From IMG/VR virus record IMGVR_UViG_2695420398_000010: DNA of 28,240 bases; one strand, given 5' to 3'. Below are positions 24,101 to 28,240 of the stretch, piece by piece. The first letter of the stretch is position 1; each line of letters opens with the position of its first letter. The position numbers and the translations under genes are program-made. The notes beneath the pieces were generated by a model, which did no database searches, had not been told where the DNA came from, and was given only the letters and a program-made list of their open reading frames with translations. This stretch comes from a virus (taxonomy: Duplodnaviria; Heunggongvirae; Uroviricota; Caudoviricetes).

Positions 24101-24690
24101 CGTCAGGCGTGATCCCTGATATGCGTGGCTGGACGATTAAGGGCAAACCTGCCAGTGGTCGTGCCGTATTGTCTCAGGAACAGGACGGCATTAAATCGCA
24201 CACCCACAGCGCCAGCGCATCCAGTACGGATTTGGGGACGAAAACCACATCGTCGTTTGATTACGGCACTAAATCCACGAATAACACCGGGGCGCATACG
24301 CACAGTCTGAGTGGCTCTACGGGGTCTGCCGGTGCTCATACTCATGGTAATGGTATTCGTTGGCCAGGAGGCGGCGGTTCTGCGTTAGCATTTTATGATG
24401 GCGGTGGGTTCACTTATGTCAAGGATTCACAGTATCAAGTAAGCCCGGGGACTTCTTCCAGTAGATCGTATTATCAACGTATTCAGACACAGTCAGCAGG
24501 TGCTCATACCCACTCGCTGTCTGGTACTGCAGCAAGTTCTGGCGCACATGCACATACTGTAGGTATTGGTGCGCATACGCACTCGGTTGCGATTGGCTCA
24601 CATGGACACACCATCACCGTTAACGCTGCGGGTAACGCGGAAAACACCGTCAAAAACATCGCATTTAACTATATTGTGAGGCTTGCATAA
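21145..24690 (+). CDS. stf: Side tail fibre protein Stf (mosaic, 1181 aa)
   Basis: N-terminus near-identical to lambda Stf as recalled; long Ala/Ser/Thr-rich repeat shaft; a central block not shared with lambda Stf; C-terminal His-box repeats (GAHTHS, GAHAHT, GSHGHT) and an end matching lambda Stf ([22 protein letters not shown]). Confidence 0.85.
21500..22500 (+). repeat. In-frame degenerate tandem repeats encoding the Ala/Ser-rich Stf shaft
   Basis: Reiterated motifs such as [19 protein letters not shown] and ATTKA[GS]EA at the protein level; the low-complexity GC-rich DNA creates long phantom ORFs in other frames and on the opposite strand. Confidence 0.55.
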
Positions 24691-25274
24691 TGGCATTCAG
24701 AATGAGTGAACAACCACGGACCATAACAATTTATAATCTGCTGGCCGGAACTAATGAATTTATTGGTGAAGGTGACGCATATATTCCGCCTCATACAGGT
24801 CTGCCAGCAAACAGTACCGATATTGCACCGCCAGATATTCCGGCTGGCTTTGTGGCTGTTTTCAACAGTGATGAGGCATCGTGGCATCTCGTTGAAGACC
24901 ATCGGGGTAAAACGGTCTATGACGTGGCTTCCGGCGACGCGTTATTTATTTCTGAACTCGGCTCATTACCGGAAAATGTCACCTGGTTATCCCCGGAAGG
25001 GGAGTTTCAGAAGTGGAACGGTACAGTCTGGGTGAAGGATACGGAAGCAGAAAAACTGTTCCGGATCCGGGAGGCGGAAGAAACAAAAAACAGCCTGATG
25101 CAGGTAGCCAGTGAGCATATAGCGCCGCTTCAGGATGCTGTAGATCTGGAGATTGCAACGGAAGAAGAGGCGTCGTTGCTGGAAGCCTGGAAGAAGTATC
25201 GGGTGTTGCTGAACCGTGTTGATACATCAACTGCACCTGATATTGAGTGGCCTGCTGTCCCTGTTATGGAGTAA
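24690..25274 (+). CDS. tfa: Tail fibre assembly protein Tfa
   Basis: 194 aa, same length as lambda Tfa and near-identical to it as recalled; start overlaps the stf stop (TAATG). Confidence 0.9.
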
Positions 25275-25402: not shown

Positions 25403-26635
25403 TCAATTGTTCATAGTGTTTACATCACCGCCAATTGCTTTTAAGACTGAACGCATGAAATATGGTTTTTCGTCATGTTTTGAGTCTGCTGTTGATATTT
25501 CTAAAGTCGGTTTTTTTTCTTCGTTTTCTCTAACTATTTTCCATGAAATACATTTTTGATTATTATTTGAATCAATTCCAATTACCTGAAGTCTTTCATC
25601 TATAATTGGCATTGTATGTATTGGTTTATTGGAGTAGATGCTTGCTTTTCTGAGCCATAGCTCTGATATCCAAATGAAGCCATAGGCATTTGTTATTTTG
25701 GCTCTGTCAGCTGCATAACGCCAAAAAATATATTTATCTGCTTGATCTTCAAATGTTGTATTGATTAAATCAATTGGATGGAATTGTTTATCATAAAAAA
25801 TTAATGTTTGAATGTGATAACCGTCCTTTAAAAAAGTCGTTTCTGCAAGCTTGGCTGTATAGTCAACTAACTCTTCTGTCGAAGTGATATTTTTAGGCTT
25901 ATCTACCAGTTTTAGACGCTCTTTAATATCTTCAGGAATTATTTTATTGTCATATTGTATCATGCTAAATGACAATTTGCTTATGGAGTAATCTTTTAAT
26001 TTTAAATAAGTTATTCTCCTGGCTTCATCAAATAAAGAGTCGAATGATGTTGGCGAAATCACATCGTCACCCATTGGATTGTTTATTTGTATGCCAAGAG
26101 AGTTACAGCAGTTATACATTCTGCCATAGATTATAGCTAAGGCATGTAATAATTCGTAATCTTTTAGCGTATTAGCGACCCATCGTCTTTCTGATTTAAT
26201 AATAGATGATTCAGTTAAATATGAAGGTAATTTCTTTTGTGCAAGTCTGACTAACTTTTTTATACCAATGTTTAACATACTTTCATTTGTAATAAACTCA
26301 ATGTCATTTTCTTCAATGTAAGATGAAATAAGAGTAGCCTTTGCCTCGCTATACATTTCTAAATCGCCTTGTTTTTCTATCGTATTGCGAGAATTTTTAG
26401 CCCAAGCCATTAATGGATCATTTTTCCATTTTTCAATAACATTATTGTTATACCAAATGTCATATCCTATAATCTGGTTTTTGTTTTTTTGAATAATAAA
26501 TGTTACTGTTCTTGCGGTTTGGAGGAATTGATTCAAATTCAAGCGGAATAATTCAGGGTCAAAATATGTATCAATGCAGCATTTGAGCAAGTGCGATAAA
26601 TCTTTAAGTCTTCTTTCCCATGGTTTTTTAGTCAT
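25403..26635 (-). CDS. ea47: Ea47-like protein of unknown function (AT-rich accessory gene)
   Basis: Long uninterrupted minus-strand ORF in visibly AT-rich DNA; starting at the third in-frame Met (MTKKPWERRL, GGAGAG RBS upstream) gives 410 aa / 1233 nt, the size of lambda ea47, and the 128-nt gap from tfa matches lambda; track ORF extends to 26662 (419 aa). No Walker A, HNH or HEPN motif seen by eye. Confidence 0.6.
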   Translation of the reverse strand: MTKKPWERRLKDLSHLLKCCIDTYFDPELFRLNLNQFLQTARTVTFIIQKNKNQIIGYDIWYNNNVIEKWKNDPLMAWAKNSRNTIEKQGDLEMYSEAKATLISSYIEENDIEFITNESMLNIGIKKLVRLAQKKLPSYLTESSIIKSERRWVANTLKDYELLHALAIIYGRMYNCCNSLGIQINNPMGDDVISPTSFDSLFDEARRITYLKLKDYSISKLSFSMIQYDNKIIPEDIKERLKLVDKPKNITSTEELVDYTAKLAETTFLKDGYHIQTLIFYDKQFHPIDLINTTFEDQADKYIFWRYAADRAKITNAYGFIWISELWLRKASIYSNKPIHTMPIIDERLQVIGIDSNNNQKCISWKIVRENEEKKPTLEISTADSKHDEKPYFMRSVLKAIGGDVNTMNN

Positions 26636-26811
26636 AAAACTCTCCATTTTGATAGGTTGCATGCTAGATGCTGATATATTTTAGAGGTGATAAAATTAAC
26701 TGCTTAACTGTCAATGTAATACAAGTTGTTTGATCTTTGCAATGATTCTTATCAGAAACCATATAGTAAATTAGTTACACAGGAAATTTTTAATATTATT
26801 ATTATCATTCA

Positions 26812-27126
26812 TTATGTATTAAAATTAGAGTTGTGGCTTGGCTCTGCTAACACGTTGCTCATAGGAGATATGGTAGAGCCGCAGACACGTCGTATGCAGG
26901 AACGTGCTGCGGCTGGCTGGTGAACTTTCGATAGTGCGAGTATTGAATGATTTCCAACTGTTATCGATTTTGCGTATTTTTTGCATGAGAGGATTTTTAC
27001 CTCCTCCCACCGATCCTCCATGGCTTTACGCCAGTGTCTCTGGTCTGCTATGTGCCAGGAGCAGCCATTGCTAAGTCCATCCTGTATTGTGCAGGTCAGC
27101 TCGTTTTTAAAGAGTCCGGCCATCAT
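26812..27126 (-). CDS. Hypothetical 104-aa ORF upstream of and co-oriented with the ea47-like gene (doubtful)
   Basis: Open frame of near-normal GC content with a weak RBS and tandem ATG start; no recognisable family; could be a decayed remnant. Confidence 0.15.
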   Translation of the reverse strand: MMAGLFKNELTCTIQDGLSNGCSWHIADQRHWRKAMEDRWEEVKILSCKKYAKSITVGNHSILALSKVHQPAAARSCIRRVCGSTISPMSNVLAEPSHNSNFNT

Positions 27127-27416
27127 CTTACTGGTACAGACACCATATACTTTGTGACGGTCAGGCTACATATGCACAACTCAACTTATTCATCTATTTT
27201 TTGCTTTAGCATGTCAGTGTTGCTTTCTCGTCGGCGGGTGAGCGGTGACCTGACCTGTCGATAAAGGAACGTAGCACGTTTTATGCAACACCCGCATGCG
27301 GCAGAAAATTATTGCCGAACGTTTACCCCTGTCAACAAGCTTTACTTTCTGAGGCGCGCCAGCCCGCGAGGAAAACAATCTGAACATCAAACAATTAATG
27401 ACACAAGAAATACGAT

Positions 27417-27442
27417 TAAAGATTTTTTTGTGCATGCCGATA
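27417..27442 (+). promoter_or_regulatory. Sigma-28 (FliA)-type promoter
   Basis: TAAAG-N14-GCCGATAG fits the flagellar sigma-28 consensus (TAAAGTTT-N11-GCCGATAA) in sequence and spacing; lies about 25 nt upstream of an AAGGAG RBS and ATG 27467. Confidence 0.55.
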
Positions 27443-27466
27443 GTGCTTTTTTAAAAGGAGAAATCT

Positions 27467-27799
27467 ATGTCTGTCACAATTCAGGGAAATACCTCAACCG
27501 TTATTTCAAACAACTCCGCCCCGGAAGGAACATCAGAAATAGCCAAAATCACAAGACAAATTCAGGTGCTGACTGAAAAGCTTGGGAAAATCTCATCGGA
27601 AGAGGGGATGACGACACAGCAGAAAAAAGAAATGGCTGCATTGGTACAGAAGCAAATTGAAAGCCTCAGGGCTCAACTGGAGCAGTTGTTAAGGCAGCAG
27701 GCAGAGAAAAAGAATGAAGACGCGACAGTTCAGCCTGATAAAAAAGAAGAGAAAAAAGACGATACAAATACCGCTGGCACCATTGATATTTACGTCTAA
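27467..27799 (+). CDS. flxA: FlxA-like small coiled-coil protein
   Basis: 110 aa with a Ser/Thr-rich N-terminus, central heptad-like coiled-coil and Lys/Glu-rich C-terminus; size and architecture match prophage FlxA-family proteins and it carries a sigma-28-type promoter; strong RBS. Confidence 0.55.
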   Translation: MSVTIQGNTSTVISNNSAPEGTSEIAKITRQIQVLTEKLGKISSEEGMTTQQKKEMAALVQKQIESLRAQLEQLLRQQAEKKNEDATVQPDKKEEKKDDTNTAGTIDIYV

Positions 27800-27814
27800 G
27801 TGACAGCCGTATTG

Positions 27815-27836
27815 TGGCCCTCATCGGGCCACTTTT
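27815..27836 (+). terminator. Terminator-like hairpin after the flxA-like gene
   Basis: TGGCCC-TCATC-GGGCCA followed by a short T-rich tract (CTTTTC). Confidence 0.4.
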
Positions 27837-28240
27837 CGCCATCAGCCTTTTCTTTAAAGACATATTATCTTTGTATCATTTTTGATAGTTAACATTACAA
27901 GATATAAGTAATGGACGCACTCCCAATTAGTCTATTTAAATCGCCACGAGTTTAACTGACAACCCATGATCAATTATGAATTGCAACTATTTCTGTAGTC
28001 ACTTTTGTGGGGACAGTCCACAAAACTGCCAACTTCCGCTTCTTGCTCATAACAGACATAAACTTCAGTTATGGCATAAAGGTATGCATGCTGGGTGGGG
28101 AAAGTATGAAGGAAAAGAAGACTGCTGCGCCGTTTGTCGTCACGTTTATCTTCATTGGCTATGCAAGTCGTAATACAAGGTGGGACAAAACTGAGACACA
28201 TAAGGCCTCGCAATGGCTTGCAAGGCTTTACATGTTTTGA

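Follow-up and report, generated by a model that had tools for sequence, protein, structure and literature searches.

Near the right end of a 28,240-nt stretch of caudovirus DNA (IMG/VR record IMGVR_UViG_2695420398_000010; this whole stretch is called the window), a gene for a 110-residue protein stands behind a sequence that resembles the promoters read by the flagellar sigma factor FliA (sigma-28). Does this sequence tie a gene carried by a prophage to the flagellar regulon of the host, and what might such a gene do there? A first-pass annotation, made from the letters of the window, had proposed the tie and called the gene flxA-like. We find that the locus is, with high confidence, flxA equipped with its own class-3 flagellar sigma-28 promoter. 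Both the gene and its FliA promoter are already known, from literature since 1997 and from genome-wide re-mapping in 2014.

The flxA promoter and its counterpart in K-12

The element begins with TAAAG at 27417-27421, and the 15 nt from TAAA to GCCGATAG correspond to the spacing of the FliA consensus, TAAAGTTT-N11-GCCGATAA (Table 1). Its -10 element agrees with GCCGATAA at seven of eight positions, and validated sites also vary at the last position. It ends 23 nt before the ATG of flxA, on the same strand, so that the match in sequence and spacing and the placement upstream of the gene are both as first described. The statement that such a match would be unusual by chance stands in part. It fails for the pattern as originally drawn, whose expected count per window is 0.45 when up to two mismatches are allowed and which occurs at least once in 34 of 100 shuffles, whereas it holds for the exact core TAAA-N15-GCCGATA, present a single time against an expectation of 0.01 per window. 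It also holds for a position weight matrix (PWM) built from the 17 other experimentally supported FliA promoters in Table 2 of Fitzgerald et al., with flxA omitted. The flxA promoter scores 20.1 bits on this matrix and ranks first among the 56,426 window positions on both strands; the runner-up scores 13.3 bits, and the 17 training promoters span 11.8 to 30.5 bits, with a median of 21.2.

Sigma-28 promoters have a usual distance between the -10 element and the start site, from which flxA transcription would start about 6-10 nt 3' of GCCGATAG, with a leader of about 15-18 nt. The Shine-Dalgarno sequence that follows agrees with the earlier view of a strongly initiated gene. Beyond the gene lies a GC-rich hairpin of 7 bp (27814-27832) that starts 15 nt after the stop codon; the RNA of 27797-27850 folds at -17.3 kcal/mol (z = -2.55). 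A consensus terminator scan did not flag this hairpin because its T-run has only 4 T, and we keep it as a probable terminator because of its fold energy. An Rfam search gave no match in the flxA region. Between the ydfV remnant and flxA, a sigma-70-like promoter, TTGACA-16-AATAAT (11/12 positions), lies on the minus strand at 27335..27308, directed away from flxA and antisense into ydfV; the K-12 copy is identical and carries no annotation there.

Table 1. Features of the flxA locus, in positions of the window
Feature	Position	Strand	Basis or remark
Larger right-edge segment, 1.36 kb	26879..28240	+	99.3% identity to Combat11I9
ydfV'-promoter-flxA-hairpin unit, 1,026 bp	27034..28059	+	98.9% identity to K-12 Qin, Shigella flexneri and PhiR42_1 copies
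5'-truncated ydfV	27034..27264	+	blastn: homology starts 75 nt inside K-12 ydfV (L002 5898-6203)
FliA (sigma-28) class-3 promoter of flxA	27417..27444	+	Sequence, K-12 identity, PWM, conservation
-35 element TAAAGATT	27417-27424 (core TAAA 27417-27420)	+	
-10 element GCCGATAG	27436-27443	+	11-nt spacer 3' of -35
Expected transcription start	27449..27453	+	Inferred from usual sigma-28 -10-to-start distance
Shine-Dalgarno AAGGAG	27455..27460	+	6 nt before ATG 27467; same in K-12
flxA CDS, 110 aa + stop	27467..27799	+	ORF list, PF14282, K-12 FlxA identity
Probable intrinsic terminator GTGGCCC-TCATC-GGGCCAC + TTTT	27814..27836	+	Fold energy; K-12 copy identical

The gene first labelled flxA-like is flxA itself. 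The comparison with K-12 FlxA (b1566) that had been proposed as a check gives 109/110 identical residues, the exception being R68 (W68 in K-12), and the protein matches Pfam PF14282 at 54.7 bits (gathering threshold 26.3, E = 1.2e-14) over residues 7-101, as well as phrog_11044, a family of unknown function. The flanking DNA is common to both, since 27034-28059 aligns with 1,645,972-1,646,997 in the Qin prophage of K-12 MG1655 at 98.9% identity (blastn), with zero differences in the promoter, leader, Shine-Dalgarno sequence and hairpin. Besides residue 68, ydfV differs: it lacks its first 25 codons here. About 1,200 of 5,426 complete E. coli genomes match the region at 99% identity or more, with the gene annotated as flxA or FlxA-like. 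At codon 68 (27668-27670), K-12 has TGG (Trp), and the window and the aligned close relatives have Arg, which suggests that the Trp allele of this laboratory strain may be derived.

The 28-mer TAAAGATTTTTTTGTGCATGCCGATAGT (27417-27444) is, letter for letter, the FliA ChIP-seq motif of K-12 flxA (Fitzgerald, Bonocora and Wade 2014, PMC4183435), and the same study reports a flxA RNA level of 280 in motile MG1655 versus 2 in a fliA deletion. [quoted passage not shown] Genomic SELEX with sigma-28 holoenzyme places a peak between ydfV and flxA, and flxA co-varies with fli, flg and che genes in transcriptomes of unrelated regulator knock-outs. The gene was first described by Ide and Kutsukake (1997, Gene 199:19), by whose title it is FliA-dependent and dispensable for motility, and a 2024 survey still lists it among uncharacterised genes. 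Since these K-12 data concern an identical 28-mer, the proposed tie to the host flagellar regulon is correct and the system a known one. The data on FliA dependence all come from K-12, and fliA and flhDC lie outside the window.

The FliA promoters of ycgR, yhjH (pdeH), ynjH, yjcZ, modA and ves have the same consensus and spacing as that of flxA and precede non-structural genes, and the fliA dependence of flxA is of the same size as that of yhjH or tar. In contrast to E. coli flxA, which is prophage-borne, ycgR, yhjH, ynjH, yjcZ, modA and ves are chromosomal core genes, some of them with known functions (c-di-GMP brake, phosphodiesterase).

In the flagellar cascade, FlhDC turns on fliA, whose product is kept inactive by FlgM up to the point at which the finished hook-basal body exports FlgM. 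Sigma-28 holoenzyme freed in this way would then fire class-3 promoters including that of flxA, and, because FlgM is released only after the hook-basal body is complete, flxA would be made only late in flagellar assembly. Firing here would follow the identical K-12 sequence, which sigma-28 RNA polymerase binds in vivo and from which flxA RNA depends more than 100-fold on fliA. The transcript, with a strong Shine-Dalgarno sequence in its short leader, would end at the hairpin, and promoter, gene and hairpin together would make up a self-contained promoter-gene-terminator cassette.

Prophage setting and movement of the cassette

The window covers the late region of a lambdoid prophage, with genes for terminase, portal, protease-capsid, tape measure, J, Lom, tail fibre and tail-fibre assembly. 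3' of the tail-fibre assembly gene come a minus-strand gene of 419 codons, the truncated ydfV and then flxA. This 419-aa reading frame has a GC content of about 31% versus about 50% in the tail genes, and its only match is phrog_19262 (function unknown); Pfam, NCBIfam and PADLOC gave none. This gene has the look of foreign cargo, and might be an accessory or defence gene that awaits characterisation. A strong, full-length plus-strand match to Rfam IS009 (RF02111; 221.6 bits) at 25033-25231 falls within the tail-fibre assembly gene (24690-25274).

In such a setting flxA might be transcribed mainly by read-through, from an antiterminated late operon or a promoter of the truncated ydfV, with the sigma-28 site secondary. 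The gene is on the same strand as the late genes from terminase to tail-fibre assembly, and the ydfV upstream of it is truncated and newly joined at 27034. However, the tail-fibre assembly gene and flxA are separated by a convergent 1.26-kb gene (the 419-aa frame, 25403-26662, minus strand), a lysogen keeps the late operon silent, and a scan of 26806-27466 found no good plus-strand sigma-70 site. Moreover, K-12 has the same 433 bp upstream of flxA, and there a fliA deletion removes more than 99% of the RNA. We consider it very unlikely that read-through is the main source of flxA RNA; late-operon read-through at induction could add FliA-independent expression to that from the sigma-28 promoter.

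The gene had been described as lying inside the prophage. It does adjoin lambdoid late genes, but it sits at their extreme right edge, and the segment that carries it (26879-28240) is also found 3' of unrelated prophages. In Combat11I9, QEC11-421 and H7, which have one layout in common, an e14/Mu-like prophage with its pinE and GIY-YIG genes stands before the segment, and chromosomal genes (LysR, pao, ykg or rcl) come after it. The left end of the prophage is outside the window, and a search of the window for tRNA genes found none. flxA may be cargo of the lambdoid prophage or a remnant beside it.

In K-12 and PhiR42_1 the unit is flanked by relBE-ydfV and the replication/immunity genes and runs antisense to the early-right operon; in the window it stands 3' of the tail-fibre genes, where the lambdoid prophage has its right edge, and adjoins the pao/ykg chromosomal region. 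With the e14-like arrangement, the ydfV'-flxA cassette occupies at least three kinds of prophage position. PhiR42_1, a packaged phage, is its only carrier among 50,697 phage records. Of the window junctions, the left one is present in 33 and the right one in 23 of the 5,426 complete E. coli genomes, and the complete arrangement from the tail-fibre assembly gene to the window end is found in one, PS1Phumofeces1, with an extra 602 bp at 28051. This insert (L001 12853-13453) carries a gene for a '4-fold beta flower protein'; the blastn alignments flanking it overlap by 21 bp (28031-28051), and homology to K-12 ends nearby, at 28059.

Phage morons, such as lom and bor of lambda, are autonomous promoter-gene-terminator cassettes in lambdoid phages. 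The flxA unit resembles them, as a single gene flanked by its own promoter and its own probable terminator (with a short T-run), placed between or beyond phage blocks and mosaic among unrelated prophages. It differs in that a host alternative sigma factor, the flagellar one, drives flxA in place of sigma-70, and in that its chromosomal kin share the promoter.

Rearrangements at the locus were also seen. In E. coli H7 (L024, NZ_CP010171.1, 1683-9866), the block of tail-fibre assembly genes, pinE, GIY-YIG gene, ydfV' and flxA occurs twice in tandem, bounded by IS1. In at least 10 strains, mostly from chicken (for example NZ_CP017631.1 and NZ_CP043217.1), IS1A appears to split flxA, with two fragments flanking the transposase. 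Together with the published lack of a motility phenotype, these insertions suggest that the gene is dispensable.

Promoter conservation in the FlxA family

Because near-identical copies say nothing about constraint, we collected divergent relatives: an Enterobacter copy (87% identity), two metagenomic copies (about 67%) and seven distant members (about 27-41%), the last from an exhaustive phmmer search that returned 49 representatives. A scan of species representatives gave four loci, and the single seemingly divergent one (L006, 66%) was rejected, being flxA itself with indels from assembly.

When the upstream regions are aligned, TAAA and CCGATA keep their register, and the spacer and flanks have diverged. 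All 11 loci, the window and the ten others, have a match of 10-12 out of 12 positions to T[A/C]AA-N15/16-GCCGATAA that ends 23-32 nt upstream of the start codon. Within this 26-nt slot, 8 matches reach 11/12 or better, where the remaining sequence of the same loci would predict 0.004, and in nine of the ten other loci the upstream site is the best PWM match of the whole locus. That the motif in the window is a chance match, with the reading frame expressed, if at all, from something else, is therefore extremely improbable: the looseness of the original pattern and the AT-richness of the flxA region would favour it, but the scarcity of the exact core, the first rank by PWM, the in vivo FliA binding and fliA dependence of the same sequence in K-12, and the register kept across homologues of 27-87% protein identity all stand against it.

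Most of the distant members lie in one conserved chromosomal locus with the order gltX, flxA-like gene, convergent LysR gene, SBF-family gene, ypeB-like gene, ligA. Five of the loci (L015, L016, L018, L019 and L020) have this arrangement, and in each a sigma-28-type element precedes the start codon by 25-32 nt. L019 is on a 947-kb contig, and its protein (P0155) shares 91% identity with a named protein of Pantoea, the genus of the named members of this subgroup; at least L019 is thus from Pantoea. These Pantoea-type chromosomal genes (PF14282; gltX / yfeR-like / yfeH-like / ypeB / ligA) resemble E. coli flxA in protein length, in layout, with a disordered N-terminus, two helices and the motif IDIYI at the C-terminus, and in the sigma-28-type element. 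They differ in being non-prophage genes whose products are about 27-40% identical to E. coli FlxA, in a -35 core that is often TCAA and not TAAA, and, in three loci, in a spacer longer by 1 nt. Erwinia amylovora EAM_2383 is also annotated flxA. The presence of a sigma-28-type promoter at all sampled FlxA loci, chromosomal ones included, indicates that the flagellar link is ancestral and not a quirk of prophages. E. coli prophage flxA is a diverged, mobile member of the family.

Two large proteins, P0131 (3,361 aa) and P0146 (2,729 aa), contain 17 and 7 repeats, respectively, that match FlxA residues 8-50 at 36-37% identity.

Readings of FlxA function

The predicted FlxA fold is a small hairpin of two helices, with disorder at both termini. 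The AlphaFold2 model, built from an 18-sequence alignment, has helices at residues 20-42 and 50-86, which fits the earlier description as a coiled coil, and disorder at 1-18 and 87-110; its mean pLDDT is 65.6, with 79-89 in the helices. The family alignment shows a Ser/Thr/Gly-rich N-terminus, then the two helices and a variable linker, and at the C-terminus ID(I/V)Y(I/V), which is conserved. A PDB search with the family profile returned coiled-coil noise (best E = 1.5e-4, a designed coiled coil), and Foldseek of the model against PDB gave nothing below E = 0.5. The hairpin of the FliJ-like Chlamydia CdsO, at Foldseek rank 10 with E = 1.4, was set aside as not meaningful. PADLOC and NCBIfam had no matches for FlxA or the ydfV remnant. 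None of the three readings of FlxA function weighed here is better than even.

The first is that FlxA remains cytoplasmic, a small, non-exported coiled-coil partner of a flagellar, motor or chemotaxis component or regulator, comparable to other small proteins encoded in class 3 or the regulon. The modelled helical hairpin of about 65 residues, the lack of a signal peptide or membrane segment in FlxA, strict class-3 co-expression and the conservation of the family in chromosomes of motile Erwiniaceae are consistent with such a role. However, the title of the original paper reports no motility defect, the PDB sequence and fold searches detected no similarity to a known flagellar chaperone or regulator, and FlxA has been found in culture supernatant at the same enrichment as hook-associated proteins. 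We regard the cytoplasmic role as possible, though short of an even chance.

The supernatant finding leads to the second reading, in which the flagellar type III export apparatus secretes FlxA as a late substrate. Both the identity of its promoter and the literature place FlxA expression in class 3, after the hook-basal body. Its residues 1-18 have pLDDT below 50 and are rich in Ser, Thr and Asn, which is compatible with an export substrate and non-specific. In E. coli culture supernatant, FlxA was enriched 3.4-fold together with FlgK, FliD, FliC, FlgL, FlgM and FlgE. The same supernatant also contained CheY and many cytoplasmic enzymes, so that lysis and co-regulation could explain the presence of FlxA there. 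At 42 C, a temperature at which flagellar secretion fails, FlxA protein and mRNA change in opposite directions, the text of the source not saying which of the two rises. The supernatant and 42 C observations fit flagellar export weakly. A paper on isobutanol was discarded as a lead on flxA, since its mentions concern the end point of a large deletion only. We hold the export reading tentatively, as rather unlikely on present evidence; it is the most directly testable of the three.

The third reading, that FlxA benefits the phage, for instance as an exclusion factor against flagellum-dependent phages at exactly the times when flagella are present, is improbable: the autonomous cassette does occur in several unrelated prophages and one sequenced phage, and the timing of FlxA coincides with receptor exposure, but relatives with the same promoter occupy a conserved chromosomal non-prophage locus, no PADLOC defence model matches FlxA, and the literature searched holds no experimental hint of such a role.

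To return to export, the FlxA family may consist of unrecognised late flagellar export substrates or otherwise released flagellum-associated factors. In this scenario, which is speculative and which we judge doubtful as a whole, the family would be an old member of the Enterobacterales class-3 regulon, chromosomal in Pantoea and relatives, that was captured by prophages with its sigma-28 promoter and is now spread in E. coli, Shigella and Salmonella.

The sigma-28 promoter at all sampled FlxA-family loci and the movement of the cassette among prophage positions are modest additions to a known system. Export through the flagellar apparatus is a simple, testable hypothesis for flxA; if true, it would give a well-studied secretion system a new substrate and a widespread prophage cargo gene a function.
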